A stretch of 64,000 bases of DNA from Armatimonadota bacterium (GCA_026392115.1 JAPLCQ010000064.1:64698-128697), one strand, 5' to 3'; numbered from the stretch's first letter, positions 1 through 50,434 are shown. The notes: generated by a model from the sequence alone, not told the origin. Numbers and translations are program-made.

Positions 1-1595
1 GTCAGGGGCGCGACGAGCAGACCCAGTTCGCTACCGTCGCGGAGCCTGCGGCGCAGGGTCAAGGTCAACTCGCGCCCATGGATGTTCGCCTCCCGCAGGA
101 GCAGCGGATTGTCGTTGGAGACGAACCAGTCGGTGTAGGTGGCGGTGACCCACATGCGCGGGTCCACCGTCCAGGAGAGCCCGGCCACCGCGGTCTGGCT
201 GTCCGGGCCGAACATGGCGGTCGTGGGCCAGTCGGTGATCTCGGTACGCAGCTTGAGGTTCTCGTACGCGTACTCTCCGAAGGCGACGACCTTGGGGCCC
301 AACTGCAGGCTGCCGCCGGCCTGCAGGGCGCCGGCTGCGGAGCGCGCGTACCGCTCGGCGTTCTCCTGCACCTTGTAGGAGCTCGCGAGGTAGCCGGTGG
401 CGCTGGCCATGCAGGTCTCCAGACGGGCCGAAACGTTGGTGCGGCGGTTCCAGTAGAGGGAGCGCGTGTCTTCCTGCGCGGCGAGCGGCGAACCGGCGAG
501 CCACTGGGAGCCGGCCTTGAGCGTGATCCTGGTCTGGGAGCTCAGGAGCCCGCGCAGCCGGGCGTCGATCGTGGTCCAGCGCGGCACATCGACATAGGTG
601 CGGGTCTGGTTCAGCCGCATGATCTCGCGGCTGCGGAGGCCCACTTCGGCGTTCCAGTGGGCCCAGCGCTTCTGCAACCGCGCCGAGCCGCCCTGGTTGC
701 GAGTGACGGCCATCGTGGCGGAGGCCGGGTTGCCGATGGTCTCGCTGGTGGCGTCCAGGCTCAGGTTGCCCAGACGGCCTAGGGTGGCGTCGGCCATGAG
801 GCCGGCGGACTCCACGGTGGCCTGAGGCAGGGCCCCCTGGCGAATGAGCGTGCGGGAGTAGCTGCCGCCAGCGTCAACAGAGGGCGTCGCCTGCACCACG
901 TAGGATACGGTGGCCTGCTCCACGGTGGAGGAGGGCAGGACCGCGGTGCGATCATGGAAGTTGGAGCTGGAGTAGCCGCCGGAGATGAAGCCGCGCCCCG
1001 CCTTGCCGTAGGCCTGGACGTCGAGGGTGCGCGAGCGCTGGTACTGTGCGGCGCGGGGCACGCTGAACGTCTGCGTCTGCGACTCCATCCGGTAGGACGA
1101 GGCGATGACGAACGACGGGCTGATCCGCTGGGCGACGTTCCAGCCGGACACCTTCCGCTCGCTCTCGCCTTGGGGCTCGGGAGTGTCGGGCAGGTACCGG
1201 CTGCGCGTATAGTAGGCGTCGGCCCGCAGGCGGCCGAACATCTCGTCGGCGTTGCCGCGGTAGCTGTAATCATCGGCGCCCACGCCGCGCAGGGTGACGC
1301 CGCCCTGGCCGCTGCCCCAGCCGGCGCGGGAGCGGAGGCTCAGTTCCTCGATGAAGAGGAGCTTGGGCGGCGTGGCGTAGCGGCGCAGCGTGTTCTGGTT
1401 GCCCGAGAGGCCCAGGTCGCCGAAACCCAGGGTCAACGCGCCGGCCACGGGCAGGAGCGGCTTGGCCTTGGCCTCTTCGGTCTTCTGCTCATCCTCCGCG
1501 GGGGCCTTGTCCTGCGCCCACGCGGCTCCGCTGGGCGCCAGAACGGCGGCGGCGGCGGCCATCACGAGCAGTTCACGTACCCACGTTCTCCTCAT
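1..1595 (-). CDS. Outer-membrane beta-barrel protein, 3' end cut by the window edge (candidate MtrB/PioB-like porin partner of the adjacent decaheme cytochrome)
   Basis: Absent from the ORF track because it has no stop in the window. Reading the minus strand from the ATG at 1595 (GGGAGG 10 nt upstream) gives an uninterrupted frame down to position 3 (531 codons). The N-terminus MRRTWVRELLVMAAAAAVLAPSGAAWA/QDKAPAEDE is a signal peptide. It is followed by Tyr/Gly/Ser/Thr/Arg-rich alternating segments typical of large OM barrels (FVIASSYRMESQTQTF, LDVQAYGKAGRGFISGGYSSSNF, VVAFGEYAYENLKLRTE). The porin-partner role rests on gene order only. Confidence 0.6.
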   Translation of the reverse strand, partial: MRRTWVRELLVMAAAAAVLAPSGAAWAQDKAPAEDEQKTEEAKAKPLLPVAGALTLGFGDLGLSGNQNTLRRYATPPKLLFIEELSLRSRAGWGSGQGGVTLRGVGADDYSYRGNADEMFGRLRADAYYTRSRYLPDTPEPQGESERKVSGWNVAQRISPSFVIASSYRMESQTQTFSVPRAAQYQRSRTLDVQAYGKAGRGFISGGYSSSNFHDRTAVLPSSTVEQATVSYVVQATPSVDAGGSYSRTLIRQGALPQATVESAGLMADATLGRLGNLSLDATSETIGNPASATMAVTRNQGGSARLQKRWAHWNAEVGLRSREIMRLNQTRTYVDVPRWTTIDARLRGLLSSQTRITLKAGSQWLAGSPLAAQEDTRSLYWNRRTNVSARLETCMASATGYLASSYKVQENAERYARSAAGALQAGGSLQLGPKVVAFGEYAYENLKLRTEITDWPTTAMFGPDSQTAVAGLSWTVDPRMWVTATYTDWFVSNDNPLLLREANIHGRELTLTLRRRLRDGSELGLLVAPL

Positions 1596-1627
1596 GTTGT
1601 TTGGACCTCCCTTCGCGCCGTGGCGGC

Positions 1628-2680
1628 CTAGCGTACGAGCAGGTTCGGGTCTCGGTTCGACCCGTGAAGCGCGGCGTGGCATCCCGAAGCCCAGCAGGTC
1701 TGGCCCGGGTAGTGGGTGGCGTTCTTGTCCGTGTGGCACTGGTTGCAGAGCCCGCGGGAGAAGGCGCCCAGCATCTTCGGGTTGGTGGCGCCGTGGGGCT
1801 TGTGGCACTCGACGCAGCCGTCGCCGGATGCGCCGGTGACCGGATCATGCGGGTACACGAAGGGGCCGGCGACTTCGCGATGGCATGTGGCGCAGACCTG
1901 CGTCGGGTTCTTGAGCCCGACCCGCATGGAACCCTTGCGGAGGCTGGTCCGGGTGGGATGCGGCTCATGGCAGTCGCTGCAGGTCATGCGGCCTTCGGGT
2001 ACGGGATGATGGTAGGGCTGCCGGAACTGGGCGACGTCGGCCTTGTGGCAGGAGCCGCAGAGGTCGGCCTCGTGATCCTTCAGCAGGTGCTGGGTCTCTT
2101 TCACGGCCACCGCGGTGGGCTTCCGGATGCTCTGGGCGTCGCGGGTGGCGCGGGCGGCCGGATCGCTCTGCTTGGCGTCCTTGTGGATGAAGTGGCACGA
2201 GCGGCAGGAGACGTCGCCGCGGGCGTGGGCCGTCTTCTTCCAGTGCGACTCGGACATGGTCCGGGAGTGGCATCGCAGGCACATGGCGTTCACATCGGCC
2301 GGGGAGGCCTTGCTCGGCGCGAAGATGTGCTTCTGCAGTTCGCCCTCTTCCTGGTTCTCCAGGTGGTTCTTGCCCGGCCCGTGGCAGGACTCGCAGCCGC
2401 GGTGGTCGACCGGCAGCTTGGAGTCGCGGACGTACTGGGCGTGGGGCGAAGCCTCAAAGCTCTCCAGATACGCGGGATGGCATCCGCCGCAGGTCTTCTC
2501 GCCCAGGTAATCCTCAGCCGCGGCGCCCGCGTGGAGCGCCACAGGGAACGGCGCCTTCTTGGGGGCGGCCGGTTTGGAGGATGACGCCTGCCCAACGAGG
2601 GACACGCCGGCCAGTGCGGCCATGGACAACGCCATCGCAACCGAGGGCCAAGCCCGCAGCCAGTGCTTGATGTGCATCAT
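1628..2680 (-). CDS. Periplasmic decaheme c-type cytochrome (MtrA/DmsE/PioA-like)
   Basis: ORF 1628..2824, with the likely true start at the ATG at 2680 (MMHIKHWLRAWPSVAMALSMAALAGVSLV signal peptide). The sequence GGAGGCAAGGAG lies immediately upstream. There are nine CXXCH motifs (CGGCH, CESCH, CLRCH, CRSCH, CGSCH, CSDCH, CATCH, CVECH, CNQCH) plus a terminal CWASGCH-x3-HGSN. At about 350 aa this is the size and heme density of MtrA-type proteins. Confidence 0.85.
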   Translation of the reverse strand: MMHIKHWLRAWPSVAMALSMAALAGVSLVGQASSSKPAAPKKAPFPVALHAGAAAEDYLGEKTCGGCHPAYLESFEASPHAQYVRDSKLPVDHRGCESCHGPGKNHLENQEEGELQKHIFAPSKASPADVNAMCLRCHSRTMSESHWKKTAHARGDVSCRSCHFIHKDAKQSDPAARATRDAQSIRKPTAVAVKETQHLLKDHEADLCGSCHKADVAQFRQPYHHPVPEGRMTCSDCHEPHPTRTSLRKGSMRVGLKNPTQVCATCHREVAGPFVYPHDPVTGASGDGCVECHKPHGATNPKMLGAFSRGLCNQCHTDKNATHYPGQTCWASGCHAALHGSNRDPNLLVR

Positions 2681-2839
2681 CTCCTTGCCTCCGGGTGAAC
2701 TCCATACGGCGGTCCGCCGAATCGTGAGCCGTGTAACGCAAGTGCGGCCGCATGTGCGAAGCATCATACCAATACCTAGCGTGTCTACGCAAGGGGATGG
2801 GCGGCTCCCTGTGCTGTTTCTCACAAACCGGCGGGCCGG

Positions 2840-4753
2840 CTAGGGCCAGAACTCGTAGGTCTGGACATTCAGCGCCATGCCGAGCAGCGTCCAGCTACAG
2901 CCCACGGCGAACTCGCCCAGCATGAGCCCGAAGAAGAAGAGCGTGGCGGCCCGGTAGCCCGACAGGCCCCGCCACTTAAGGATGGCGCCTTTGCAGAGGC
3001 TGCCGATGAGGATCGGCAGCCAGAGGTTGGCCATGCCCCAGCTGTTGGCGGCGGCGTAGGCCAGCGGATGGAACGGCAGACCCAGGAGCCGCTGACGCAA
3101 GGCGCCCAGGGCCGCCGCAACCGCGCAGCCGGCCAGCATGGCCATGCGGTCGCCGGGCATGGGAGGCGCGGGGCTGTTGAGCCACGTCGAGAGGTTCACG
3201 CTGAAGGCTTCCCGCGCGTAGCCCACGCCCCACATATTGACGGAGGCGGTGGCCGCTCCCACGCGATAGAAGCCGTGCAGAAAGACCGCCCAGCAGATCG
3301 GCACGGCCACCAGCCCGGCCAATCCCACGGCGAAGGCCATGGCGCGGCGGTCGGCCTCGGCGTTGCCTGCCACCTTCAGGGCCTCCAGCGCGTGCGGCAT
3401 GGGGTGGCCCCGGTAGGCTCGGCTGGTCCAGTGGAGCATCGCGAACATGCCCAGTGTCGGCTTGTCGAACGCTTCGGCGCCCAGGTTCCGCACCAGGGCG
3501 TTGACCGGGCCCATCTGGTGCATGTCGTGGACCGGGAAGCCGAACTCGGCGCGTATGCGCGTGATGAGCACCGAGAGTGCGCCGAAGAGCGTCAGGAAGA
3601 GGACCGCCACCCAGGGCTTCATGCCCGCGATCACCAGGAAGCCGAAGAGGAGGCAGACGGAGCCGGCCAGGCCCGCGGCCGCCAAGCGTGTTGAGCGCGC
3701 TTCGGCTCCGCCTCCCGCCGCCGAGCGCCAGACGGCCGCCAGCTGCGCCCGAAGCCGCCACGCCGCCGCCGCGAAGACCCACATATAGGCGCCGAACGCC
3801 TGCGAGTCGGCGTAGGGCGCCCGGCTCTCCGGCGGAAGCCCCATGTTCGCCACGACGAGCAGCTCGGCTCGATAGAGGAGATAGAAGAGGCTCAGCGAGG
3901 CGCTCAGGTCCAGCGGCATCAGGAATCCCAGGGTGATGGCGAAGAAGTAGAACGCCACCGTGATGGTCGATACGGGCTGCATGGGTCCCGATGGTATGAG
4001 CAGGATGTACTGGCGCTTGATGGGGATGGCCGGTATGGCGGGGTAGAGCGCGTTGAGGCCGTTCAGCAGCGTGACGCCCGCGGCCACCGCGAAGCCGATC
4101 CAGAAGACGCGGCTGGCGTAGAGCGCCCGGGGGTGCTGTGCCATGGCAAGCGGCAGGGCCACGATGGGGAACGTGAGGCGCTCGTTCTCGGCCCAGGCCC
4201 GCCGGAGCAGCGCCGAGGCGCAGAGCATTGCGAGCATGGCGGCCCAGAGCGCCAGCGTCCAGACGAGCACGGGCAGGGCCCAGGCGCGCATCGCCTCGGG
4301 CGTCCAGAAGCTGGAGTTGCCGCGGAAGAAGCCGCTGACGGCCTCCTTCGGCCCGACCAGCAGCCACGGCGGCATGGCGCCGTCGAAGAGCGATGACCAG
4401 CGGTTGGCCTTGTCGGCGAAGTAGGCCGGATAGCCCAGCTCGGTGACCAGGATCGACTGCAGGTCGCAGGAGAGCATCGCCGAGCCCACCGAGACCATGG
4501 CGTAGACCGCCAGCGTCTCCAGCCCGGTGAGGGCCGCCCGCGGGCGGTGCGCCCGGAGCCAGAGGTTGCCCAGGCTCACCAGCAGCAGGATGTAGACGGC
4601 GTGGCAGAACGGCGCGGCCAGCGTGACGAAGGAGTACCGGACGATCTCGCCCCAGAAGACCCAGTGCGCCGACAGCCAGATGAGCGCCACGCCCAGTATC
4701 AGGGCGCGGGCGCGGATGGGAGGACCGGCTACTGCGTTTGGGTGCTCTGCCAA
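2840..4753 (-). CDS. Large polytopic inner-membrane protein, function unknown
   Basis: 637-codon ORF starting at a TTG at 4753 with GGAGGG 8 nt upstream. It is hydrophobic throughout, with more than 12 predicted helices by eye (LILGVALIWLSAHWVFW, VYILLLVSLGNLWL, WALPVLVWTLALWAAMLAMLCASALL and others). I did not recognise a catalytic motif. Confidence 0.75.
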   Translation of the reverse strand: MAEHPNAVAGPPIRARALILGVALIWLSAHWVFWGEIVRYSFVTLAAPFCHAVYILLLVSLGNLWLRAHRPRAALTGLETLAVYAMVSVGSAMLSCDLQSILVTELGYPAYFADKANRWSSLFDGAMPPWLLVGPKEAVSGFFRGNSSFWTPEAMRAWALPVLVWTLALWAAMLAMLCASALLRRAWAENERLTFPIVALPLAMAQHPRALYASRVFWIGFAVAAGVTLLNGLNALYPAIPAIPIKRQYILLIPSGPMQPVSTITVAFYFFAITLGFLMPLDLSASLSLFYLLYRAELLVVANMGLPPESRAPYADSQAFGAYMWVFAAAAWRLRAQLAAVWRSAAGGGAEARSTRLAAAGLAGSVCLLFGFLVIAGMKPWVAVLFLTLFGALSVLITRIRAEFGFPVHDMHQMGPVNALVRNLGAEAFDKPTLGMFAMLHWTSRAYRGHPMPHALEALKVAGNAEADRRAMAFAVGLAGLVAVPICWAVFLHGFYRVGAATASVNMWGVGYAREAFSVNLSTWLNSPAPPMPGDRMAMLAGCAVAAALGALRQRLLGLPFHPLAYAAANSWGMANLWLPILIGSLCKGAILKWRGLSGYRAATLFFFGLMLGEFAVGCSWTLLGMALNVQTYEFWP

Positions 4754-7869: not shown

Positions 7870-9168
7870 CTACCTGGCTACCGGCGCCGGTCGTCCCTTC
7901 ACGAGATCGGTGAACCAGGCCTCGCATCGCTTCGAGTAGGCGCCGTGGTCGCCGCCATGGCCCGTGTTGGGCATGACGACCACCTCTTTCGGACCCTTCA
8001 ACTCGTTGGTCATGGCGAAGACGCCCGGCGCCGGGCAGGTCACGTCCACAAGCCCCAGGCCGACGAGGATGGGGCGCTTCACGCGGGAGGCGAAGTTCAC
8101 CACGTCGAAGTAGCGCGATGCGGCGCGCACCCTGGCCACATCCTTCCCATCGGTGGCCCAGTACCACATGGGCCAGCCCGCCGCGCGCCCGGCTTCGGGA
8201 CCGTTCAGATCGCAACCCGCCGGCACATCGGCGACGCCCGCGGTGATCTTCGGATGGAGGGCGGCGGTGACGATGGTCTGGAGCCCTCCCTGGCTCCCGC
8301 CGGTCACCACCAGCACCTTGCCGTCCCAGTCGGGACGCCGCGCCAGGTACTCGGCTGCCCGGTAGCACGAGAGGTACATGCGGAGGAAGTAGCTGGTCTC
8401 CCGGTCGTCGTTGCCGATGGCCGGGTAGCCCGCCAGGGCGCCGCGCGACTGCTCGTCATAGAACGCCTGCGGCTGGTCGATGGGCAGGTCGTGGGCCTGG
8501 ATGTCCAGCACCAGCCAGCCGGCTTCGGCCCGCCACTGGATCCAGTCGCGCTGGAGCGGGTAGACGCCCGCCCACTGCACGATGAGCATCGCCGGGAACT
8601 TGCCGGGACGCTTGGGCCGGGCGAGCTGCCCGTAGATGTGCGAGCCCCGGATGTTGTCCATGCGGAGCTTGAAGTACTCGATACCCGGCTTGCCGATGTC
8701 GACAGGCTCCAGCACGGGGTTCGCCGGCACCCGCGCGAGGTCGGCCAGCTTGGCCTTCCAGAAGGCGTCGAAGTCGGCCGGGCGCGGGAGCGACGGCCCG
8801 ATGCGGCTCGGGCTGAAGGCGGCTCCGGCCGCCGCGGTGATCTCCCTGGAGGGGAGCTTCGCCTTCAGCTCCAGAAGCAGCGTGCCGGGCTCGTCGAGCT
8901 TCGCCTCGAGCGCGGCCTTGCCGCCGGTCAGCGGAAGGGCGCCCTCCCGCAGTACCTTGAGGCCGTTCTGCTTCAGCACATAGCGAACGTCGGCAGCCCC
9001 CTCGGCGCCGGGGCCGCGGACCTCGATCTCCCACCGGGCCGTCTCGCCGGCGGCGTAGACGGCCCGCGGCTCCGAGGCGGTCGCAACGATCTCCTGCGCG
9101 GCGATCGGCCGCAGCGATGTCAGGCCGACGGCGGCGAGGACGAGGCGTAGCTGGGTTCGCAGGTTCAT
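7870..9168 (-). CDS. Secreted acetyl-xylan esterase / cephalosporin-C deacetylase family (CE7-like)
   Basis: This is the C-terminal 432 codons of track ORF 7870..11145. The start is the ATG at 9168 (MNLRTQLRLVLAAVGLTSLRPIAAQE signal peptide, GGGAG upstream). A GGSQGG nucleophile elbow, the AXE1-like core and a C-terminal HGG are present. The rest of the 1091-aa ORF is antisense shadow of the next gene. Confidence 0.85.
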   Translation of the reverse strand: MNLRTQLRLVLAAVGLTSLRPIAAQEIVATASEPRAVYAAGETARWEIEVRGPGAEGAADVRYVLKQNGLKVLREGALPLTGGKAALEAKLDEPGTLLLELKAKLPSREITAAAGAAFSPSRIGPSLPRPADFDAFWKAKLADLARVPANPVLEPVDIGKPGIEYFKLRMDNIRGSHIYGQLARPKRPGKFPAMLIVQWAGVYPLQRDWIQWRAEAGWLVLDIQAHDLPIDQPQAFYDEQSRGALAGYPAIGNDDRETSYFLRMYLSCYRAAEYLARRPDWDGKVLVVTGGSQGGLQTIVTAALHPKITAGVADVPAGCDLNGPEAGRAAGWPMWYWATDGKDVARVRAASRYFDVVNFASRVKRPILVGLGLVDVTCPAPGVFAMTNELKGPKEVVVMPNTGHGGDHGAYSKRCEAWFTDLVKGRPAPVAR

Positions 9169-9291
9169 GGTTGGCTCCCGATGCGTGGTTGTGCGGCAGG
9201 CCGGATCCGTAGCGACCACAGGTTCGACTCGGCGGCCCGACGCTCCTGCTCCCTCAGAGGACTCCGCCGGCGCCGCGCCGAACATGGCCGC

Positions 9292-11115
9292 ATGAACGCC
9301 CTTCACGTTTGCGCCATGCTTGCGGCCATGCTCCCGGCCGCGCCGTCGCTTGCCGCACCCAAGGAGCCACGCGCCATGCCTGCTGCCGATCACGCCTTCA
9401 CGCTGGTCCGCGCCGGAAGGGCCGCCTGCCGCATCGTTGTGCCCGCCAGGCCCGCGCCGGTGGTGCGCCACGCAGCCGAGGAGCTTCGACGGCTGGTGGC
9501 CCTGATGTCCGGGGCCACGCTGCCCATCGCCGAGGAGGGCGCGGGCGGCGACGGCGCGGCCGTCTACCTGGGGCCGACCCGCAAGGCCGCGGCGCTCTTC
9601 GCGGCGGGGGGCAAGCCCTCGGCGGAGGACGGCGTGGCGATCCGCACCGCGGGCCGCGACCTGGTCCTGTCGGGCGGCAATGGGCGCGGGCGCCTCTACG
9701 CCGTCTATGTGCTGCTGGAGAAGTGGCTCGGCGTCCGGTTCCTGGCGCACGACTGCACGGTGGTCCCCAGGCGCTCCACGGTGACGCTGCCGGAGATCAA
9801 CTACACCTACGCGCCGCCCTTCATGTACCGCGAGGCGCTTTACTGGGACGCCTACCCCAAGGAGACCGCCGCGCCCCAGCGGCTCAACGGCCCCGCCACC
9901 AAATGCGACGAGGCCACGGGCGGTAAGGTCGCCTTCTTCCCCTACGTCCACAGCTTCTGCAAGCTGGTGCCGCCGGATAAGTACTTCGCCGAGCACCCCG
10001 AGTACTTCAGCCTGGTGGGCGGCAAGCGCACCGACCTGACGATCCACGGCCAACTCTGCCTGACGAACCCGGAGGTCCTGAGAATCGCCACCGCCCAGGC
10101 CCTGGCCTGGATTCGCGAGAACCCCGATATCCCGATCATCGACATCTCGCAGAACGACGGCGAGGGCGCCTGCGAGTGCGACGCGTGCGTGGCCGTGGAG
10201 CGCGAGGAGGAGAGCAAGCACGGGCCCATACTGCGGTTCGTCAACGCCATCGCCGACGCCGTGAAGCGCGAGCACCCGGACAAGTGGGTGGAGACGCTGG
10301 CCTACGCCTATTCCACCAAGCCGCCGGCCAGGACGCGCCCGCGCGACAACGTCATCATCCGCCTGTGCCATGCCGGGTGCTACCACCACGGCTTCGAGGC
10401 CTGCGGCCTGGGCGCGAACCTGACGACCTATCTGGAGGGCTGGCGCAAGCTCACCCGCCGCATCTTCATCTGGCACTACGCGGCCAACTTCGCGCACTAC
10501 CTGGCGCCCAACTTCAACCTGCAGGGGCTGGCCGCCGACCTGAAGGCCTACCCGCGCTACGGCGTTAACGGCGTGATGGTCCAGGCCGACCACCAGGGCT
10601 CCGGCGGCGAACTGGCCGAGCTGCGGCAGTACCTGGTCGCGCAGCTGCTGTGGGACCCCACCCGCGATCCCATGGAGATCCGCCGCGAGTTCTGCGCCGG
10701 CTACTACGGCCCCGCGGCATCCGACGTGGAAGACTATCTGGCGTTGGTGGACGCCGAGGGCGCCCGCAAGGAGATCCACGCCTTCGGCGCATGGGACCCG
10801 ACGGGCACGGTGCGGCCCGAGTTCGTGGCCCGCGGGCTGGAGGTGCTGGCCGGCGCCCGGGCGAAGTGCGCCGACGAAGCCGTGCGCAACCGCGTGGACA
10901 AGCTGATGCTGCCGCACTGGTACGCCCAGCTCCAGTGGCCCGACAAGTACGCGCTGCCCGAATCCGACGCGCCCGCCCTGGTGGCGAAGTTCCGCCGCGT
11001 GGTCGAGCGCAACCAGATCACCTACATCCGCGAGGACTTCAACTCCCCCAGCATGCCCGGATGGCTGGCCGAGATGGAGAAACGCTACTCCACCCAAGGA
11101 AGAAGGACCCCATGA
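9292..11115 (+). CDS. Secreted DUF4838-family protein (alpha-glucuronidase/GH20b-like N-domain)
   Basis: The start is the ATG at 9292 (MNALHVCAMLAAMLPAAPSLAAP signal peptide). Family hallmarks are present: RGRLYAVYVLLEKWLGVRF, YFSLVGGKR, QLCLTNPEV, ISQNDGEGACECDAC, IWHYAANF. Confidence 0.85.
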   Translation: MNALHVCAMLAAMLPAAPSLAAPKEPRAMPAADHAFTLVRAGRAACRIVVPARPAPVVRHAAEELRRLVALMSGATLPIAEEGAGGDGAAVYLGPTRKAAALFAAGGKPSAEDGVAIRTAGRDLVLSGGNGRGRLYAVYVLLEKWLGVRFLAHDCTVVPRRSTVTLPEINYTYAPPFMYREALYWDAYPKETAAPQRLNGPATKCDEATGGKVAFFPYVHSFCKLVPPDKYFAEHPEYFSLVGGKRTDLTIHGQLCLTNPEVLRIATAQALAWIRENPDIPIIDISQNDGEGACECDACVAVEREEESKHGPILRFVNAIADAVKREHPDKWVETLAYAYSTKPPARTRPRDNVIIRLCHAGCYHHGFEACGLGANLTTYLEGWRKLTRRIFIWHYAANFAHYLAPNFNLQGLAADLKAYPRYGVNGVMVQADHQGSGGELAELRQYLVAQLLWDPTRDPMEIRREFCAGYYGPAASDVEDYLALVDAEGARKEIHAFGAWDPTGTVRPEFVARGLEVLAGARAKCADEAVRNRVDKLMLPHWYAQLQWPDKYALPESDAPALVAKFRRVVERNQITYIREDFNSPSMPGWLAEMEKRYSTQGRRTP

Positions 11116-12869
11116 CGACCCGATCCGCCGCCGTTGCCGCGTCACTGCTGGCTCTCGCCGCGCAGGCCCAGGCCGCCCAGCTCTGGGTGGCGCCCAACGG
11201 CAAGGACACCAACCCCGGCACCAAGGCCAGACCCGTTGCCACCCTTCAACGGGCTCGCGACCTGGCGCGGGCCGCCCTCGCCGCCAAGCCCTCGCCGGTG
11301 ACCATCACGCTCAGGGCAGGAACCTACTTCCTCGCATCGCCGCTGGAGCTCACCGCCGCCGACAGCGGCGCGGCCGGCGCTCCGGTCACCTACACCAGCC
11401 TGCCGGGCGAGAGCGCCGTGCTGAGCGGCGGCGCGCCGGTGGCGGGCTGGAAGCAGCAGCCCGACGGCCTGCTCGCCGCGCCCATCCCCGCCGGAGGCGC
11501 CCTCAAGGCCATGCGGCAGCTGTTCGTTGGGGCGAGCCGGGCGACGCGCGCACGGTGGCCCAACGACGACGGCGCCCTGCAGCTGGCGACCGTGTCGGAC
11601 GACGTAAAGTCCTTCACGCTCTCGCATGCCATTCCCGGCGGCGACCTGGCCGGCGCGGGCGCCGAGCTGGTGGTCTACGAGAACTGGTCCGTCACGCGGG
11701 GCGCCGTCACCCGATCCGGCGGTGACAAGCTGGAGACGGCCACTCCCATGGGCTGGATCGGCCACGGACCCATGACCACCGCCAGCCCCGGCAAGCCCGC
11801 GTTCCTGGAAGGCGGCAGGGCCTTTCTGGACCAGCCCGGCGAGTGGTGCATCGATGGCGGCCGGATCCTCTACAAGCCGCGCGCCGGCGAGACCGCCGCG
11901 AACCTAAGGGCCGTGGCGCCCCGGCTGGAGCGGCTCGTGGCCTTCCGCGGCGAGGCCGGAAAGCCTGTGCGGCACATCGTCTTCCGCGGTGTGACCTTCG
12001 CGCATACCGAGTTCGCGCTGCCGGTCGTTGGCTACTGCGAGATTCAGGCGGGCCACTACGGCCCAGCCACCGCCCAGCCCTGCTGGGTGCAGCCTGTGGC
12101 CGTGGAGGCGGCCTGCGCCGAGGATTGCCGGTTGGAGCGCTGCACGCTGCGGAATCTGGGCGGCTCGGCCGTCGGCGTCGGGCGCGGCTGCAAGCGCGTG
12201 GCCGTGAGCCGCTGCACGCTGGAGGAGATCGGGGGCAACGGCATCATGGTCGGTTGGCGCGGCAACAAGGGGGCCATCCGCTGCCAGGTTGGCGATCTCG
12301 ATGCCGACTGGGTCGATCCAGCCGACGCGCCGGCGGGCTGCACCGTCACCGACAATGTGATCACGCGGTGCGGGGCGTTCAGTCCCGGGTGCGTGGGCGT
12401 CTACGCGGCCTTCAGCGCCGACACGTTGGTGGCGCACAACCTGGTACACGATATGCCCTACACCGGCATGTCCGTCGGCTTCCGCTGGAGCCAGGAACCG
12501 AGCACGCAGACGCGGTGCATCGTGGAGAACAACCACATCCACGATGTGATGAAGCTCCTTGCCGACGGCGGCGGCATCTACACGCTGGGCGTGCAGCCGG
12601 GCACGGTCCTTCGCGGCAACCGAATCTACGACGTCCACCGGAGCGGCTTCGCCCAGGGCGGCGCGCCCAACAACGGCTTCTTCGTGGACGAGAGCAGCAC
12701 GGGCTTCCTCTTCGAGCGCAACCTGGTCTACCGCACCTCCGGCGAGCCCGTGCGCTTCAACCGGTGCGCGCGGGACTGGCACACGTGGAAGGACAACCTG
12801 CTGGGCTGGGACGAGAAGGAGAGCCCCGAGGCGGCGGCCATCATCAAGGCGGCGGGGCCGCGGAGGTAG
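11112..12869 (+). CDS. Secreted right-handed parallel beta-helix repeat protein
   Basis: The ATG at 11112 overlaps the upstream stop (ATGA). The signal peptide is MTTRSAAVAASLLALAAQAQAAQ. The N-terminus LWVAPNGKDTNPGTKARPVATLQRARD is typical of pectate-lyase-fold proteins. Repeated coils are visible (NLGGSAVGVG, IGGNGIMVG, IHDMPYTGMSVG, GGGIYTLG). Confidence 0.8.
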   Translation: MTTRSAAVAASLLALAAQAQAAQLWVAPNGKDTNPGTKARPVATLQRARDLARAALAAKPSPVTITLRAGTYFLASPLELTAADSGAAGAPVTYTSLPGESAVLSGGAPVAGWKQQPDGLLAAPIPAGGALKAMRQLFVGASRATRARWPNDDGALQLATVSDDVKSFTLSHAIPGGDLAGAGAELVVYENWSVTRGAVTRSGGDKLETATPMGWIGHGPMTTASPGKPAFLEGGRAFLDQPGEWCIDGGRILYKPRAGETAANLRAVAPRLERLVAFRGEAGKPVRHIVFRGVTFAHTEFALPVVGYCEIQAGHYGPATAQPCWVQPVAVEAACAEDCRLERCTLRNLGGSAVGVGRGCKRVAVSRCTLEEIGGNGIMVGWRGNKGAIRCQVGDLDADWVDPADAPAGCTVTDNVITRCGAFSPGCVGVYAAFSADTLVAHNLVHDMPYTGMSVGFRWSQEPSTQTRCIVENNHIHDVMKLLADGGGIYTLGVQPGTVLRGNRIYDVHRSGFAQGGAPNNGFFVDESSTGFLFERNLVYRTSGEPVRFNRCARDWHTWKDNLLGWDEKESPEAAAIIKAAGPRR

Positions 12870-19460: not shown

Positions 19461-19566
19461 GGCCCCGTCCTGTGCCGCCACTTCTCGGCCATGAGGCGTG
19501 TCCGGCCGGAAGGAGTGCGGGGCCTGCGCCTCGAACCTACGGCAACACGCTTCGGAGGGAACGGCC

Positions 19567-20625
19567 ATGATGACCTCGCACGAACGCTTCTCGCGCATGT
19601 TTGCCCACAAGGAGGCGGATCGCGTGCCCATCATCGACGGACCTTGGGGCGATACCGTGGCCCGGTGGCAGCGCGAGGGCATGCCGACCGACGTCAGCTA
19701 CGTGGACTACTTCGGGCTGGACAAGGTCGTCGGGATCGGCGCCGACAACGGCCCGCGCTGGGAGGGCAAGCGGCTGGAGGAGACCGACGAGTACGTCATC
19801 GACCTCACCTCCTGGGGCGTCACGCTCAAGAACCTGAAGACCACCTCCGTGCCGCAGTACCTCGACTTCCGCATCAAGGACCCCGACACCTGGCGCGAGG
19901 CAAAGGAGCGCATGGAGCCGAGCCGCGACCGGGTGGATTGGGCGCACCTGAAGCAGCACTACGCCTCCTGGCGCGAGCAGGGGTGCTGGATTCAGGGCCA
20001 CCCCTGGTTCGGCTTCGACGCCGCGCACTCCTTCGTTGACATGGAGGTGCTGCTGGAGGCCATGGTCGAGCAGCCGGAGTGGTGTGCGGAGATGTACAAC
20101 CACTGCCTGGACGTGAGCCTCACCATGCTGGACATGGTCTGGGACGAGGGCTACACCTTCGACTCGCTCTTCTGGTGCGACGACATGGGCTACCGGAACA
20201 CCCAGTTCTTCTCGGTGCGGGCCTACCGCGAGTTGCTCCTGCCGGCGCAGAGGCGCGCCGTGGAGTGGGCGCACCGCAAGGGCATCGTGGCGCACCTCCA
20301 CTCCTGCGGCAACATCATGCGCTTCGTGCCCGAGCTGGTCGGCATCGGGATGGACGGCCTGAACCCGCTGGAGGTGAAGGCCGGCATGGACTCCATCGGC
20401 ATCAAGCAGCAGTTCGGCGACCGCCTGCTGCTCCACGGCGGCATCAACGCCGTGCTGTGGGACAAGCCCGACGAGATCGAGGCAGAGATGCGCGCGGTGG
20501 TGCCCGCCCTGAAGCGGAACGGCGGCTACATCTTCTCCTCGGACCACTCGGTGCCCAGCAGCGTGAGCCTGGAGGACTTCCGGCGCATCGTGGAGCTGGC
20601 CAAGGAGCTGGGGAGCTACGAGTAG
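19567..20625 (+). CDS. URO-D-superfamily protein, paralog 1 (not HemE)
   Basis: The start is the ATG at 19567 (GGAGGG upstream). The N-terminus HKEADRVPIIDGPWG replaces the HemE PVWxMRQAGR block. HLHSCGN and GGYIFSSDHSV motifs are present. 352 aa. Confidence 0.85.
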   Translation: MMTSHERFSRMFAHKEADRVPIIDGPWGDTVARWQREGMPTDVSYVDYFGLDKVVGIGADNGPRWEGKRLEETDEYVIDLTSWGVTLKNLKTTSVPQYLDFRIKDPDTWREAKERMEPSRDRVDWAHLKQHYASWREQGCWIQGHPWFGFDAAHSFVDMEVLLEAMVEQPEWCAEMYNHCLDVSLTMLDMVWDEGYTFDSLFWCDDMGYRNTQFFSVRAYRELLLPAQRRAVEWAHRKGIVAHLHSCGNIMRFVPELVGIGMDGLNPLEVKAGMDSIGIKQQFGDRLLLHGGINAVLWDKPDEIEAEMRAVVPALKRNGGYIFSSDHSVPSSVSLEDFRRIVELAKELGSYE

Positions 20626-20647
20626 GGCCTCGAGGAGGAACCGCACC

Positions 20648-21778
20648 ATGGACGTTGCGCAGGTGAAGATCGACCGGCTTCGGCTGGCGTTGGCCCACAA
20701 GGAGCCGGACCGCGTGCCGGTGGGCGAGTTCTTCTGGACCGGCTTCCTCAAGCGCTGCAAGGCGGTCTGGGGCGAGGAGTTCGACCCCTACCGCCGGTTC
20801 GACCTCGACTACATCGTCATCGGACCGAACATGGACCCGGTGATCCGGCCCTTCGAGGTGGTCGCGCAGTCGGGCGACGACATCACGGTGCGGACCGGCT
20901 TCGGCGCGACGATCAGGCGCTCCGGCGACCTGCCCATGCCCAGCTTCGAGGCCTTCTCCGTCACGCGGCCCGAGGAGATGGCCGACTTCGCCTTCGATGC
21001 GCCGGACGACCCGCGCCGCTTCCGGCAGGGCGGCGACGACCAGCTCAACTGCGTGGGCGACGCGCTGGCCCGCGACATCCCCAGCTTCCTCGATCGGATG
21101 GCGCCCTACACCGCGGACATGGCGGTCTTCGGCGGCATCTGCGAGCCCTTCGAGTACCTCTGGCGCATCATCGGCACCGAGAACGCGCTGGAGTGGATGG
21201 CCACCGCGCCGGACGAGCTGGGCGCCTTCGTGCAGCGGATCGGAGCGCACATGGTCGCCATGTGCCGGGCGCAGATCGACGCCGCCGAGGGCAAGCTGGC
21301 CGGCATGGTCATCTGGGGCGACGTGGCCTACCGCAGGGGGATGCTCTTCGGCGCCCGGCGCTGGCGGAGCCTCTTCCGCCCCCACGTGCAGGCCCTCATC
21401 GACCTCTGCCACGAGCGCGGCCTCATGGTGATCTACCACGGCTGCGGCAACGCGTCGGACATCCTGGAGGACATGGTCGAGATCGGCCTGGACGCCTACA
21501 ACCCGCTGGAGGCCAAGGCCGACCTGGACGTGGTGAAGCTCAAGCAGCGGTACGGCGGACGCCTGGCCTTCTGCGGCAACGTCGATGTCCGCGTGCTGGA
21601 GTCGGGCGACCCGGCGGCCATCCGAGCCGAGGTCCTCTACAAGCTGCAGGCGGCGCGGGGCGGCGGCTACATCTTCCAGTCCGACCACTCGGTGAGCAGC
21701 GGCGTGGCGCCCGAGAGCTATGAGCTGGCCATCCGCACGCTCCGCGAGACCGGCGATTACCCATTGAGGCTCCCATGA
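20648..21778 (+). CDS. URO-D-superfamily protein, paralog 2
   Basis: 376 aa, GAGGAGG upstream. Motifs HKEPDRVPVGEFFW, IYHGCGN and GGYIFQSDHSV are present. Confidence 0.85.
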   Translation: MDVAQVKIDRLRLALAHKEPDRVPVGEFFWTGFLKRCKAVWGEEFDPYRRFDLDYIVIGPNMDPVIRPFEVVAQSGDDITVRTGFGATIRRSGDLPMPSFEAFSVTRPEEMADFAFDAPDDPRRFRQGGDDQLNCVGDALARDIPSFLDRMAPYTADMAVFGGICEPFEYLWRIIGTENALEWMATAPDELGAFVQRIGAHMVAMCRAQIDAAEGKLAGMVIWGDVAYRRGMLFGARRWRSLFRPHVQALIDLCHERGLMVIYHGCGNASDILEDMVEIGLDAYNPLEAKADLDVVKLKQRYGGRLAFCGNVDVRVLESGDPAAIRAEVLYKLQAARGGGYIFQSDHSVSSGVAPESYELAIRTLRETGDYPLRLP

Positions 21779-22821
21779 TGACACCCAGAGAGCGCGTCCT
21801 CACCACGTTCGACCATCGCGAGCCGGACCGCGTGCCGGTCTGGTGCGGCGCTTCGGCCGAGTTCCAGCAGAAGGTCAGGGACGAGCTGGGCCTGGACGAA
21901 GAGGCCTGGCTCCTGCGCATCCGCGACGACTTCCGCCGGGTCCGCGCCGGCGACTGCGGGCCGGAGTTCGCCCTCTCGCCCGGCGCCACCTGCCGCACCG
22001 TCTTCGGCGTGGAGCGCCACGGACTGGGGTACGGCCAGCCGCTGAGCCACCCGCTGGCAGACGCCGGCCTGGCCGAGGTGGATGCCTACGCCTGGCCCGA
22101 TCCCGCCTGGGTCGATGTCTCGCGCATCCGCGAGGAGGCGCTGCGTTGGGAAGGCCGGTATGCCGTGCTGGGCGGCGACTGGTCGCCCTTCTTCCACGAC
22201 GCCATCGACCTGCTGGGCATGGAGCGGCTCTACTTCGCCATGGCCGACGAGCCGGAGCTGGTGCAGAGCCTCATGCGGCACATGGTGGACTACTACCACG
22301 AGTCCAGCAGGCGCGTCTTTGAGGCCGCGGCCGGGGCCATCGACATCTTCTTTATCGGCAACGACTTCGGCAGCCAGCGCGGGCCCCTCCTCTCGGCCCG
22401 CCACTTCCGCTCCTTCGTGCTGCCCCACCTCGCGCGGCTCATCGAGCTGGGGCACGGCTACGGCCTCAAGGTGATGCTCCACTGCTGCGGCGGGATCCGG
22501 CCGCTGATCCCGGACATGATCGACGCCGGCCTCGACGCCCTCCACGCGGTGCAGCCCAGCTGCCTGGGCATGGACCTGGCGGGCCTGAAGGCCGAGTTCG
22601 GCGACCGCATCGTCTTCAACGGGGCCATCGACTCGCACCACGTGCTCATCAAGGGCACGCCCGAGACGGTGCGCGAGGGGACCCGCGAGGCCCTGCGCGC
22701 CATGATGCCCGGAGGCGGCTACATCGCCGGCGCCAGCCACGACAGCATCCTGGAGGAGACCCCGGTGGAGAACGTCGTGGCCATGTTCGACGCGGTCCAC
22801 GAGTTCGGCGCGTATGCCTGA
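21775..22821 (+). CDS. URO-D-superfamily protein, paralog 3
   Basis: 348 aa. The ATG overlaps the upstream stop (ATGA). Motifs HREPDRVPVWCG, MLHCCGG and GGYIAGASHDS are present. Confidence 0.85.
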   Translation: MMTPRERVLTTFDHREPDRVPVWCGASAEFQQKVRDELGLDEEAWLLRIRDDFRRVRAGDCGPEFALSPGATCRTVFGVERHGLGYGQPLSHPLADAGLAEVDAYAWPDPAWVDVSRIREEALRWEGRYAVLGGDWSPFFHDAIDLLGMERLYFAMADEPELVQSLMRHMVDYYHESSRRVFEAAAGAIDIFFIGNDFGSQRGPLLSARHFRSFVLPHLARLIELGHGYGLKVMLHCCGGIRPLIPDMIDAGLDALHAVQPSCLGMDLAGLKAEFGDRIVFNGAIDSHHVLIKGTPETVREGTREALRAMMPGGGYIAGASHDSILEETPVENVVAMFDAVHEFGAYA

Positions 22822-33748: not shown

Positions 33749-36700
33749 ATGCCTGTAGAAACCATAATCGCGGGCTCGGTGGCGGGCGCCGTCATCAAGG
33801 CCGTGGCAATGTACTACCTGGGCGGCAACGTGCTGCAGCAGGCCGCCATGGATGTGCTGGACCTGGCCACGGCGCTGACCCAGGATGAAGCTGATGCCAG
33901 GAAGACCAAGCGCGTACTGGAGTCGGCCGGCGAGAAGGTCGAAGCGGAAATGCGGCGCATCTTTGCCACCCAGGCCAGCGGGCTGTCGCCTGAGTCGGTG
34001 GAGCCGTTGGCGCTGACCTTTCGCGATGCCATCCAGCTCCACGCGCCGACACCCGAGTTGCTCCGCGATCCAACGCTGAACCCCGAGATGATCTTCGCGC
34101 GGCTTCGCGAGGGTGCGTTCGCCCCTAAGAGGAGGTACACCGCGCCGGGCACACCGGAATGGCGCGACTTTGGCCCTGCCGAGGAGCAGTTTCTGGAGCG
34201 CACGCTTAGGGACTACAGCATCCGCCTCATGTCGGTGATCGACACCATGCCTGCTCGGCCGGCCGTGCGGGAGTTGGCTCGGCGGGAGGCCGAGTGTCAC
34301 GCGAAGCTTGAGGCGATGGTGCAGGGCTGGGTCCTGGTGCTCGAGCAATCCCTCAGCAGCAGCAGGAACGAGGACTGGCAGCACTTCCACGAACAGTACT
34401 GCTCAGAGGTAGCTCGGGAGCTGGATCGGGTGGAGCTATTTGGGGCCAACCTGAACAGCTGCCGCCGCTGGTCGCTGAGCGTTGCGTATGTGACGCTCGG
34501 GGTGGGTGAGGCCGGAGGCGATGCGCGGGAGGCGTCCGAGACCTCGTTCGTCGATCAGGTGGTTCGTGCGCACCCGCGCCTGCTGATCCACGGCGCCGCG
34601 GGTTCCGGCAAGACCACCCTGGGCCAGTGGCTCGCCGTGCGGGCCGCCAGGCAGGACCAGCTGGAGCAGGCGCCCGAGCTTCGGGGCCTCGTACCGTTCT
34701 TCATCAAGCTCCGGCGGTTCTCCGACGGCAAGTTTCCCGCTCCCGAGGAGTTCCCGAAGTGCGCCGCGCCCAACTACGGCGGCGCCGTGCCGCCCGGATG
34801 GGTGCAGACCCAGATGAAGGGTGCGATCATCATCCTGGACGGCGTGGACGAGCTGTCGGAAGCCGCTCAGGAGAAGGCCAGGGACTGGATCATTGGCCTT
34901 GTAGAGACCTTCCCGGAGGCGCGCTACGTGGTCACTTCGCGGCCCTACGCCGCCAAGGACGGCTGGCTGACGAAGAGCGGCTTCGCGGAAGCCATGCTCA
35001 TGCCCATGCGCGAGCACAATGTGGCCACCTTCGTCGAGCAGTGGCACAAGGCGGTGGCCGAGGGAGCCACGGAGGATAGCGAGAAGGCGGCGCTGCTTGC
35101 CGATGCCGGTATGCTGGCCAAGCAGATCGTCGGTGACCATGCATTGCGTGCCCTGGCCACCACGCCTCTCCTCTGCGCCCTCCTCTGCGCCCTCTACCAT
35201 GAGACCCACAGGCACCTGCCCAAGGTGCGGATGCAGCTCTATCGGGCCTGCTGCGAGATGCTGGTCGACCGCCGCGACCGCGAGCGCGACGTGATGATCG
35301 ACCGGGACTACCCGCGACTGGAGCAAGACGCCAAGCTGCGTCTGCTCCAGGATGCGGCGCTCTGGATGGTGCAGGCCGATTGCAGGGACCAGAAGTGGGA
35401 CGAGGTCATGCTCTGGCTGGAACCCCGCGTGGCCGGCCTGCGCGGCATGCCGCAGGGCATGGGGGCCGGGCATGTGCTGCGCCTGCTCACCCATCGGACA
35501 GGGGTGATGCGCGAGCCCGCCGCCGGTGTGGTGGACTTCGCCCACCTGGTGCTGCGCGACTACCTGGCGGCCGAGGCCTTTGTGCGGGAGCGTCACTTCG
35601 GTCCCCTGGATGCCCTCGCCTCGCGGCCGGGTGAAGGTGAGATCATAGCGCTGGCGGCGGGTATCGCCGGCAAGAAGGATGCGGAGCGGATCATCAAGAC
35701 GCTCCTGAACCCGCCCGTATGGCGCCGGCGGGAACGGGTCCGGCGGTCGCTCCTGGGCGCCGCGTGCTTGGAGACCGTCGTGGAGCTTGAACAGGGCCTC
35801 CGCACTCAGGTGGAGTCCCGCCTGGCCGACGTCTTCCCTATCAAGAGCCGGTCCGACGCGGAGATGGTCGCCCGCGCGGGCGAGATGGCGGTACCGCACC
35901 TCAGGTACGACGCGTCGGCCTCACCTGCCACGATGCGTTGGTGCGCGGCCGCGCTGGCGCTGATGGACAGCGACGGCGCGCGTGTCGCCTTGAACGAGTA
36001 CGTACCGGCCATGGATCGCGACCCCGGCCTGCGGATCGAGCTGCTGCGGGCGTTGGGCGGGCGCCTGAACGGCCAGGAGTATGTGGGCATTCCGGGTGGC
36101 GCGTGTGAGTTCGACGCGTCCATCGGCGCCGTCAGGATTCAGCCGTTCCAGTTGGGCAAGTACCCGGTGACCGTGGCGCAGTACCGGGAGTTCACGGAGG
36201 TGACCGGTCGTCGGATGCCGAAGCCGCCGGACTGGGGCTGGGTCCCGGACCACGCCATGGTGAACGTGTCGTGGTTCGATGCGCGCGACTACTGCGAATG
36301 GACCGGCGGTCGGCTCCCCACCGAGGAGGAGTGGGAGTGGGCCGCTAGCTGGGATCAGGCGAAGCGTCGTTGTCGTGTCTACCCATGGGGCGACGAATGG
36401 GACCCCGCCGCTTGCGCCAACTCCGTTGACACTCGGCTGGCTGGCACCGTGGCTGTGGGTAGCTACCCTTCCGGCGTCAGCCCTTGCGGTTGCTACGACA
36501 TGGCAGGCAATGTGTGGGAGTGGTGTGCCAGTCCATATGAAAGAGATGCCGATGATAAGCAGACGGATGTCTCCTGTGTGCTGCGCGGCGGGTCGTGGCA
36601 CAGCGCCGACCCGGACGCCTTCCGGTGTGCCTACCGCAGCATCAACCGCCCGGACGCCCGCTTCGTCATCTACGGTTTCCGTGGCGCCAGGACTGTCTGA
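33749..36700 (+). CDS. NLR-like STAND NTPase: helical N-terminal domain of unknown type, NACHT module, helical repeats, and a C-terminal FGE-sulfatase (SUMF1/EgtB/PvdO-like) domain
   Basis: 983 aa, AGGAGG 6 nt upstream of the ATG.
- aa 1-25: hydrophobic helix IIAGSVAGAVIKAVAMYYLGG.
- aa ~225-250: pre-NACHT block LDRVELFG...LSVAYVTL.
- aa 282-289: Walker A GAAGSGKTT.
- aa ~359-367: Walker B IIILDGVDE, followed by VVTSRP.
- Winged-helix block: FAHLVLRDYLAAEAF.
- aa 778-983: FGE fold (YPVTVAQYREF, VNVSWFDARDYCEW, RLPTEEEWEWAA, GNVWEWC, LRGGSW). Confidence 0.85.
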   Translation: MPVETIIAGSVAGAVIKAVAMYYLGGNVLQQAAMDVLDLATALTQDEADARKTKRVLESAGEKVEAEMRRIFATQASGLSPESVEPLALTFRDAIQLHAPTPELLRDPTLNPEMIFARLREGAFAPKRRYTAPGTPEWRDFGPAEEQFLERTLRDYSIRLMSVIDTMPARPAVRELARREAECHAKLEAMVQGWVLVLEQSLSSSRNEDWQHFHEQYCSEVARELDRVELFGANLNSCRRWSLSVAYVTLGVGEAGGDAREASETSFVDQVVRAHPRLLIHGAAGSGKTTLGQWLAVRAARQDQLEQAPELRGLVPFFIKLRRFSDGKFPAPEEFPKCAAPNYGGAVPPGWVQTQMKGAIIILDGVDELSEAAQEKARDWIIGLVETFPEARYVVTSRPYAAKDGWLTKSGFAEAMLMPMREHNVATFVEQWHKAVAEGATEDSEKAALLADAGMLAKQIVGDHALRALATTPLLCALLCALYHETHRHLPKVRMQLYRACCEMLVDRRDRERDVMIDRDYPRLEQDAKLRLLQDAALWMVQADCRDQKWDEVMLWLEPRVAGLRGMPQGMGAGHVLRLLTHRTGVMREPAAGVVDFAHLVLRDYLAAEAFVRERHFGPLDALASRPGEGEIIALAAGIAGKKDAERIIKTLLNPPVWRRRERVRRSLLGAACLETVVELEQGLRTQVESRLADVFPIKSRSDAEMVARAGEMAVPHLRYDASASPATMRWCAAALALMDSDGARVALNEYVPAMDRDPGLRIELLRALGGRLNGQEYVGIPGGACEFDASIGAVRIQPFQLGKYPVTVAQYREFTEVTGRRMPKPPDWGWVPDHAMVNVSWFDARDYCEWTGGRLPTEEEWEWAASWDQAKRRCRVYPWGDEWDPAACANSVDTRLAGTVAVGSYPSGVSPCGCYDMAGNVWEWCASPYERDADDKQTDVSCVLRGGSWHSADPDAFRCAYRSINRPDARFVIYGFRGARTV

Positions 36701-50330: not shown

Positions 50331-50434
50331 GGCATCTCCCGCTCTCGAGCCCGCATCAGGCGAGCATCAAGAGTATTGTACTAGCGGCGCCTGTGCGCCG
50401 GGAGCCGACAGCCTTGCTGCCCGGAGGTGGCGGG

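Follow-up and report, generated by a model that had tools for sequence, protein, structure and literature searches.

The stretch analysed here, called the window in what follows, comprises 64,000 nucleotides of an Armatimonadota bacterium (GCA_026392115.1, JAPLCQ010000064.1:64698-128697) with a G+C content of 69.9%. At its left end, on the minus strand as are all features of the module described below, lie a gene for a decahaem cytochrome and a gene for an outer-membrane beta-barrel, which are followed in relatives by a gene for an octahaem lipoprotein cytochrome. We propose that the three products very probably form a porin-cytochrome conduit, as judged from gene content and predicted structures. 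The fuller explanation, a trans-outer-membrane wire of three proteins that carries electrons outward, is the best one as a whole and a probable one; outward direction, taken by itself, stands at about an even chance.

The decahaem cytochrome gene (2680..1628, minus strand) starts with ATGATG, preceded by GGAGGCAAGGAG, and its 350-amino-acid (aa) product carries an N-terminal signal peptide and should be secreted. Translation of this open reading frame (ORF) agreed with a preliminary description of the stretch, which had reported a protein of about 350 aa with a signal peptide, nine CXXCH motifs and a terminal CWASGCH-x3-HGSN. The haem motifs are, in order, CGGCH, CESCH, CLRCH, CRSCH, CGSCH, CSDCH, CATCH, CVECH, CNQCH and CWASGCH-AAL-HGSN, the last one being a CX4CH site (C329-W-A-S-G-C334-H335, then H339-G-S-N). 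We aligned the protein with 15 orthologues from related loci; beyond the clade of the window, identity is 45-52%. Every one of the ten Cys-Cys-His motifs was invariant (15/15), including the C-terminal C-W-x-x-G-C-H…H-G-S-N. Elsewhere in the window, which holds 27 coding-like ORFs, CXXCH occurs in one other ORF (three motifs) and in none of the rest; this rarity, together with the invariance of the ten motifs, indicates that the ten-haem pattern is not due to chance.

Family models associate the cytochrome with MtrA and DmsE. It scored 188.4 bits on TIGR03508 (DmsE/MtrA family, NCBIfam), 3.8 short of the cutoff of 192.2, and the orthologue of Fervidibacter sacchari (49% identical) exceeded this cutoff with 203.4 bits. 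The score on NF041028, the GSU2203 decahaem family of Geobacter, was 183 bits, below the cutoff of 325. A grouping with NrfB or cytochrome c3 had been named beforehand as the outcome that would speak against an MtrA-type protein; the NrfB models of NCBIfam gave only about 45 bits, and the cytochrome groups with MtrA/DmsE, although Pfam domains of the NrfB-like and c3/c7 kinds are matched as well. Searching the PDB with the single sequence returned MtrA (6r2q_A) as the top solved relative (E 7e-27, against 9e-4 for NrfB), and the 15-orthologue profile gave E 2.4e-41 for MtrA and about 8e-11 for NrfB. The entry 6R2Q is the Shewanella baltica Mtr complex, whose chain A is MtrA despite a wrong deposited molecule name. 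The unusual spacing of the tenth site, already pointed out in the preliminary description, is real: the profile aligned the last motif of MtrA, CLNCH-SQV-HGSN, onto the GCH-xxx-HGSN part of the CX4CH site, and this alignment and the invariance in the orthologues identify the site as a conserved variant of the MtrA haem-10 site rather than an error. CX4CH haem sites have a precedent in the PDB (CTTDGCH in 1WAD) and occur in cytochrome c3. By sequence, the window cytochrome is MtrA/DmsE-like with ten predicted haem sites.

The stop codon of the cytochrome gene (1630..1628) is separated by an intergenic spacer of 32 nt (1596..1627) from the next ATG, at 1595, and a GGGAGG is located at 1612..1607, 11 nt ahead of this ATG. 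The gap, the common strand and the ribosome-binding site (RBS) of the second gene, all noted previously, could be read directly in the sequence, and the spacing is equally tight in relatives. This arrangement suggests that the cytochrome and the barrel are co-transcribed, each with independent translation initiation. The barrel gene (1..1595, minus strand) is cut by the window edge, and 531 of its 556 codons lie within the window, open up to the edge, in agreement with the earlier report of a second gene of more than 530 aa, with a signal peptide, running off the stretch. That report had left the strand unstated; every detail of it that we checked was otherwise accurate. The N-terminus of the barrel protein is the signal peptide MRRTWVRELLVMAAAAAVLAPSGAAWA, followed by QD, with cleavage between AAWA and QD. 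Relatives of full length (556 aa) terminate in …GTTTF, a beta-signal typical of outer-membrane proteins with F as its last residue, so that 25 codons, carrying the C-terminal beta-signal, should lie beyond the window edge.

A word-indexed protein search returned seven homologues of the barrel, all without a name or Pfam domain, and only 7-9 even when the query was a profile of 98 sequences. An exhaustive search of 1.84 billion cluster representatives with a hidden Markov model (HMM) recovered 176 sequences at E <= 1e-3, 98 of them at E <= 1e-30. The named members of this family are all "hypothetical protein" from Armatimonadota, and a C-terminal F is found in 93/108 long members. Among 29 distant members, eight had sub-threshold matches to PF11854 (MtrB_PioB), with a best E of 8e-5 (P0103 reached 19.4 bits against a cutoff of 23), and 11 had weak matches to Pfam Porin_4.

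An AlphaFold2 model of the full-length protein P0001, 98% identical to the window barrel, had 26 strands with a predicted local distance difference test score (pLDDT) of 72.6 (7-sequence alignment), and an independent AlphaFold model of P0004, which is 33% identical, also had 26 strands, with a pLDDT of 80.7 and a predicted template modelling score (pTM) of 0.69 (9 sequences). MtrB (6r2q_B) ranked first for both models when they were compared with the PDB by Foldseek; the P0004 model matched it with E 1.4e-11, template modelling (TM) scores of 0.70/0.59 and a root-mean-square deviation of 6.9 Å. The other matches (22-strand TonB-dependent receptors and LptD) had query-normalised TM scores of at most 0.51. 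On present evidence, the barrel would be MtrB-like in predicted fold and placed outside the MtrB/PioB sequence family. The likeness to MtrAB, PioAB and MtoAB that had been claimed for the gene pair is in this way retained for the cytochrome and for the predicted fold of the barrel, but not for the sequence membership of the latter.

The gene pair itself is real, but in relatives the module has three genes and not two. A Logan contig (L021) with 96.7% DNA identity to positions 17-3200 of the window extends past the barrel stop, and a gene for a 482-aa octahaem cytochrome starts 75 nt after this stop, behind a GAAGGAGG site. The octahaem gene also follows the barrel gene in Chthonomonas contigs of metagenome-assembled genomes (MAGs) that are 87-88% identical to the window. 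The preliminary description had allowed for an MtrC-like gene outside the window: an outer cytochrome is indeed encoded there in the relative, but it is OcwA/OmhA-like, not of the MtrC/OmcA kind. It has eight invariant CXXCH motifs and an invariant lipobox with a glycine run, L-x-G-C-GGGGP. We obtained no match to TIGR03507 (OmcA/MtrC family), merely faint matches to PF22113, and no CXXCK motif in this protein. Its profile retrieved from the PDB OcwA (6I5B, E 1.8e-12) and OmhA (6QVM, E 3.7e-11) and, more weakly, MccA (5e-5) and octahaem nitrite reductase (ONR; 8e-3); Pfam Cytochrom_C552 scored 21.6 bits on the F. sacchari octahaem. OcwA comes from Thermincola potens and OmhA from Carboxydothermus ferrireducens, two Gram-positive thermophiles that reduce Fe(III); both proteins act as terminal reductases on the cell surface and belong to the NrfA/cytochrome c554 superfamily (PMC6703420, PMC9250108). 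These features give the octahaem the appearance of an OcwA/OmhA-type terminal reductase at the surface, and its lipoprotein signature would be consistent with exposure at the surface.

A scan with one genome per species yielded 14 loci, of which 11 have titles that name Armatimonadota or a member of this phylum; the scan used a single peptide pattern and therefore says little about absence outside these loci. Named carriers are two uncultured Chthonomonas sp., a Chthonomonadaceae and several Fervidibacter, including the cultured F. sacchari PD1, and we infer that the three loci labelled "uncultured bacterium" are Armatimonadota as well. Exact look-up of the window cytochrome found one 2,988-bp contig only, which ends within the barrel gene. 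The closest MAG relatives of the window are lake metagenome bins according to their record titles, and the isolate names suggest that the source lakes were stratified. At every related locus, in the 14 species as in the metagenome contigs, a cytochrome with nine CXXCH and one CX4CH is encoded upstream of the barrel; relatives of the barrel lacking multihaem cytochromes, which had been put forward as a possible contrary result, were not observed among these loci. The octahaem gene follows the barrel gene wherever there is enough flank, always in the order decahaem, barrel, octahaem. This order is maintained across lineages in which the decahaem is 45-50%, the barrel 30-35% and the octahaem 45-49% identical and in which the surrounding genes are wholly different.

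In three representatives from metagenome records (P0108, P0127 and P0129), the decahaem and the barrel are fused in one polypeptide of about 1000 aa. P0108 and P0129 consist of an N-terminal decahaem ending in CWxAGCH-xxx-HGS, a low-complexity linker of about 100 residues and a barrel ending in RRF; the first haem motif is also CX4CH in the fusions (L022:1824-4790 and L023:1822-4788). P0129 was recovered from two separate assemblies, flanked by a pentahaem gene and, downstream, an octahaem-like gene. Such decahaem::barrel fusions argue strongly that the two proteins function as a single unit.

In loci of the Fervidibacter type the decahaem gene is directly preceded by a fourth one, coding for a pentahaem of about 325 aa with an N-terminal hydrophobic segment. 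It is present in F. sacchari PD1 (L012:5180-6154) and in L013, L014, L018, L019, L004, L024 and L022, and is lacking in the window clade. Two Pfam models exceeded their cutoffs on this protein, Cytochrom_NNT (NapC/NirT; 26.7 bits) and the MtrC/MtrF II-IV domain (35.8 bits). The pentahaem may be a candidate CymA-like entry point at the inner membrane.

In the working that we propose, the 350-aa decahaem would be exported to the periplasm and would thread the lumen of the barrel as a haem wire. The 26-strand barrel, presumably inserted in the outer membrane, would insulate the wire from this membrane, and the wire would meet the eight-haem lipoprotein cytochrome, whose putative position on the cell surface would make it the terminal electron-exchange site. 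The flow would most likely be outward and would carry electrons from the periplasm to acceptors that are insoluble or macromolecular, for instance Fe(III)/Mn(IV) oxides or humic quinones. This direction is favoured because PioAB and MtoAB, which act inward in Fe(II) oxidation, have no outer cytochrome (PMC6344600) and because the relatives of the octahaem are Fe(III) reductases. As for the electron donor at the inner membrane, none is encoded beside the module in the window clade, and the pentahaem could take this place in loci of the Fervidibacter type.

Several observations weigh against this explanation, or against parts of it. The octahaem gene is not within the window itself. The window barrel had no match at E <= 0.1 in Pfam and NCBIfam, including PF11854 and the MtrB/PioB models, and its 98-sequence profile did not retrieve MtrB among PDB sequences, the sole match being a weak one to a segment of about 115 residues of a general porin (8wv0, E 4e-8). 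The AlphaFold barrel models rest on shallow alignments of 7-9 sequences, because the word-indexed search gave few homologues, and their pLDDT values are 72.6 and 80.7. The octahaem has seven invariant non-motif His and one invariant Met for eight haems; with seven such His, one of the haems could be left open for catalysis, as happens in OcwA. Neither a quinol dehydrogenase nor any other partner at the inner membrane is conserved beside the module. Two pairs of small opposite-strand ORFs (L012:7207-8109 and L012:9549-10634, minus) interrupt the operon of F. sacchari PD1, which lies at roughly 2,211,300-2,218,600 of NZ_CP130454; one pair is between decahaem and barrel and the other between barrel and octahaem, and none of these ORFs has a Pfam match. 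The module genes are tightly packed in the related MAGs L019 and L024. The same PD1, the only cultured carrier, grew only with O2 (PMC11535203), which leaves room for inward flow or for a role in iron acquisition or micro-oxic overflow. Finally, the conduit role proposed for the family would rest on gene content, conservation and predicted structures.

The alternative that survives best, although we consider it unlikely, keeps the architecture and reverses the flow: electrons taken outside the cell from Fe(II), Mn(II) or reduced humics would enter an aerobic respiratory chain, as proposed for MtoAB/PioAB. Sequence cannot separate MtrA-type from MtoA/PioA-type decahaems, TIGR03508 covering both, and the methods of the FEET study cannot distinguish MtrB from MtoB, by its own statement. 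Inward flow would also suit the known carriers, which are aerobic or come from oxic-anoxic interfaces, with F. sacchari requiring O2 and the closest MAGs being lake metagenome bins. However, the octahaem lipoprotein is strictly conserved here, whereas PioAB/MtoAB have no outer multihaem partner (PMC6344600), the closest solved relatives of the octahaem are Fe(III)-reducing surface reductases, and a lithotrophic donor is not evidently needed by the carriers, which are saccharolytic heterotrophs.

A more far-reaching possibility, which we hold to be slightly less likely still, is that the module represents a third conduit class, independently assembled and specific to Armatimonadota, in which an MtrA-type CX4CH wire is combined with a barrel convergent on or diverged from the MtrB fold and with a terminal reductase of a type that has so far been met only on Gram-positive cells, at their surface, and which, in these aerobic degraders of polysaccharides, would serve extracellular redox chemistry tied to glycan breakdown or iron supply rather than anaerobic respiration. 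If this were true, electrons would be delivered to oxidative reactions attacking polysaccharides or lignin, or to the reductive dissolution of Fe(III).

It is somewhat less probable again that the module is a DmsEF-like delivery system in which the octahaem reduces a soluble substrate (nitrite, hydroxylamine, sulfite, tetrathionate or polysulfide) instead of minerals or humics. The octahaem does belong to the NrfA/ONR/MccA/OcwA superfamily, as its matches to MccA, to octahaem nitrite reductase and, in F. sacchari, to Cytochrom_C552 recall, and seven invariant distal-type His with one Met for eight haems would fit an open haem. For hot-spring Armatimonadota, the annotation "candidate octoheme nitrite reductase" has moreover been reported (PMC11788075), and a NirA-type nitrite/sulfite reductase and a major facilitator superfamily (MFS) transporter are encoded upstream of the module in the window clade. 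This NirA-MFS neighbourhood is however confined to that clade, the octahaem lacks CXXCK, its NrfA/ONR matches are far weaker than those to OcwA/OmhA, and a small soluble substrate would not require an enzyme outside the outer membrane. The two activities are in any case not exclusive, since OcwA reduces nitrite and is an extracellular terminal reductase (PMC6703420).

Incidental adjacency of an ordinary diffusion porin or substrate channel with a soluble NrfB/c3-type shuttle, which could be invoked from the 8wv0 match, the weak Porin_4 matches in 11/29 distant members and the NrfB-like and c3/c7 domains of the cytochrome, is strongly disfavoured and very improbable, given that the three genes stay strictly together despite barrel identities of only 30-35% and unrelated neighbourhoods, that decahaem::barrel fusions exist, that 26 predicted strands are far above the 16-18 of general porins with MtrB clearly the top fold match, and that the MtrA/DmsE matches are far above those to NrfB.

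The three-protein conduit that we favour can be compared with known systems. With Shewanella MtrCAB (6R2Q) it would share a periplasmic decahaem, a 26-strand barrel (predicted here) and a multihaem lipoprotein cytochrome at the surface, all encoded at one locus; the decahaem is an MtrA homologue (E 2.4e-41), the tenth haem sites align, and MtrB is the top fold match of the barrel (TM 0.70). It differs in gene order, which is A-B-"C" here whereas mtrCAB is named for its own order, and in the tenth motif (CX4CH here, CXXCH in MtrA). The Armatimonadota barrel is about 100 residues shorter than MtrB and has no detectable sequence similarity to MtrB/PioB, and the outer cytochrome, unlike MtrC/OmcA, has eight haems, is of the OcwA/OmhA type and has no TIGR03507 match. 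The host also differs: canonical MtrCAB clusters have been reported from three phyla, Proteobacteria, Acidobacteria and Gemmatimonadetes (PMC8805035), and Armatimonadota lies outside them. With PioAB/MtoAB the module shares an MtrA-type decahaem and a large barrel, with the cytochrome gene first; in contrast to these systems, which have no outer cytochrome (PMC6344600), it includes an octahaem lipoprotein at every locus with enough flank, and its barrel, unlike PioB and MtoB, is not a member of the MtrB/PioB sequence family.

The Pcc of Geobacter (OmaB-OmbB-OmcB), compared here by its three-gene architecture alone, likewise combines a periplasmic multihaem, a porin-like protein and a lipoprotein multihaem, but its periplasmic member is the octahaem OmaB whereas that of the module is a 10-haem MtrA homologue, and its outer member has 12 haems against eight. 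The Pcc has been described as non-homologous to MtrABC, which was taken as evidence of repeated conduit evolution (PMC6344600). OcwA and OmhA, the closest solved relatives of the octahaem, have in common with it a C-terminal helical region with a GVHN motif; they differ by their 9 and 11 haems, their Gram-positive cell walls and the absence of a porin, whereas the third gene product of the module has eight haems, is a lipoprotein and is encoded beside an outer-membrane barrel. Shewanella DmsEFAB resembles the proposed system in that a DmsE-family decahaem and a barrel feed a surface-exposed terminal enzyme, but the terminal partner would here be a multihaem cytochrome and not a molybdoenzyme, and the barrel falls outside the DmsF/MtrB family.

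The non-coding region upstream of the cytochrome gene (2681..2839, minus strand) contains an RBS, with GGAGG at 2692..2688 and AAGGAG at 2686..2681, and an AT-rich promoter-like pair formed by TTGCGT (2792..2787) and TATGAT (2768..2763), 18 nt apart. Comparison of the close relatives L002, L007 and L008 showed that the approximately 125 nt before the cytochrome ATG are near-invariant and include TTGC(A/G)T-N18-TATGAT, whereas the stretch directly after the stop of the preceding gene is diverged, with indels. The module thus probably has its own promoter. Consensus scans for promoters and terminators gave nothing above threshold or background.

The preceding gene (2840..4753, minus strand) encodes a polytopic membrane protein of 637 aa with DUF6785 and DUF6784 domains (Pfam, 414 and 94 bits), a family on which we found no literature; beyond it in the window are the genes of the MFS transporter and of the NirA-type nitrite/sulfite reductase. 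We set the NirA and MFS genes aside as members of the system, since they are syntenic only in the window clade. DUF6785 was set aside as well, its membership being uncertain: among distant loci it recurs only in F. sacchari PD1, where a copy beside the module (L012:13015-14964) is 31% identical to the window protein, and it was not in the flanks of L017, L019, L020, L004 and L024, five independent contexts. In L017, L019 and L020 the module is flanked by unrelated genes, those for a peptidase, citrate synthase and MreB, and in L020 also one for a monohaem cytochrome c.

Most of the remaining window is glycan-related, as had been noted in the preliminary description and as domain annotation agrees, with two DUF4838 genes, a sulfatase, an AXE1 esterase, three URO-D-like genes and an ATP-binding cassette (ABC) transporter. 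One gene (47253-50366, minus strand) codes for a protein of 1038 aa with a hydrazine-synthase-alpha middle domain (haem-c-binding fold), a PL4 domain resembling a carbohydrate-binding module, a PD40 repeat and three CXXCH, which may be a haem-containing glycan-binding protein. Three tandem URO-D-like genes (uroporphyrinogen-decarboxylase fold) at 19498-22821 (plus strand) are followed by a fused ABC ATPase-permease gene; URO-D-like paralogues are often methyltransferases or decarboxylases for non-porphyrin substrates. A protein of 983 aa (33749-36697, plus strand) has an unusual STAND-type architecture, with an N-terminal NNH1 and NACHT nucleoside triphosphatase module and a C-terminal FGE-sulfatase (formylglycine-generating-enzyme-like) domain. 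Two ORFs overlap on opposite strands, one at 7870-11145 (minus), with AXE1 esterase in its C-terminal approximately 300 aa, and one at 9181-11115 (plus), with DUF4838. The third-position G+C is 0.91 in the plus-strand ORF against 0.77 in the minus-strand ORF, and AXE1 occupies only the C-terminal part of the latter, so that the AXE1 gene is probably far shorter than 1091 aa.

Genome mining regularly yields new porin-cytochrome clusters, and the conduit principle and the MtrA/DmsE-type cytochrome are known; what is new here is a barrel family without annotation, the chimeric make-up of the module and its occurrence in this phylum. Clusters described as novel and recognised by gene organisation have been described from Verrucomicrobia, Bacteroidetes and other groups of humic lakes (PMC6344600, PMC5615132). 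In the literature on Armatimonadota, Chthonomonas and Fervidibacter combined with multihaem cytochromes, porin-cytochrome systems or extracellular electron transfer, we found no description of such a conduit. A hot-spring Armatimonadota population has been reported to encode, besides the annotated octahaem nitrite reductase candidate mentioned above, multihaem cytochromes of unknown function (PMC11788075), and these genes may be the same as those of the module. Screens with mtrB/pioB HMMs would probably miss the module, because its barrel has no matches to such models.

Trans-outer-membrane conduits underlie the microbial cycling of iron, manganese and humics as well as bioelectrochemistry. 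For humic lakes, an important role of extracellular electron transfer to humic substances has been proposed (PMC6344600), and the nearest relatives of the window are from lake metagenomes. The combination of an MtrA homologue with a barrel absent from Pfam/NCBIfam and an OcwA/OmhA-type surface cytochrome suggests that the parts of conduits are interchangeable. The module is testable, its carrier F. sacchari PD1 being in pure culture, and it would extend the range of conduits to Armatimonadota, a phylum known for the aerobic use of sugars and polysaccharides.

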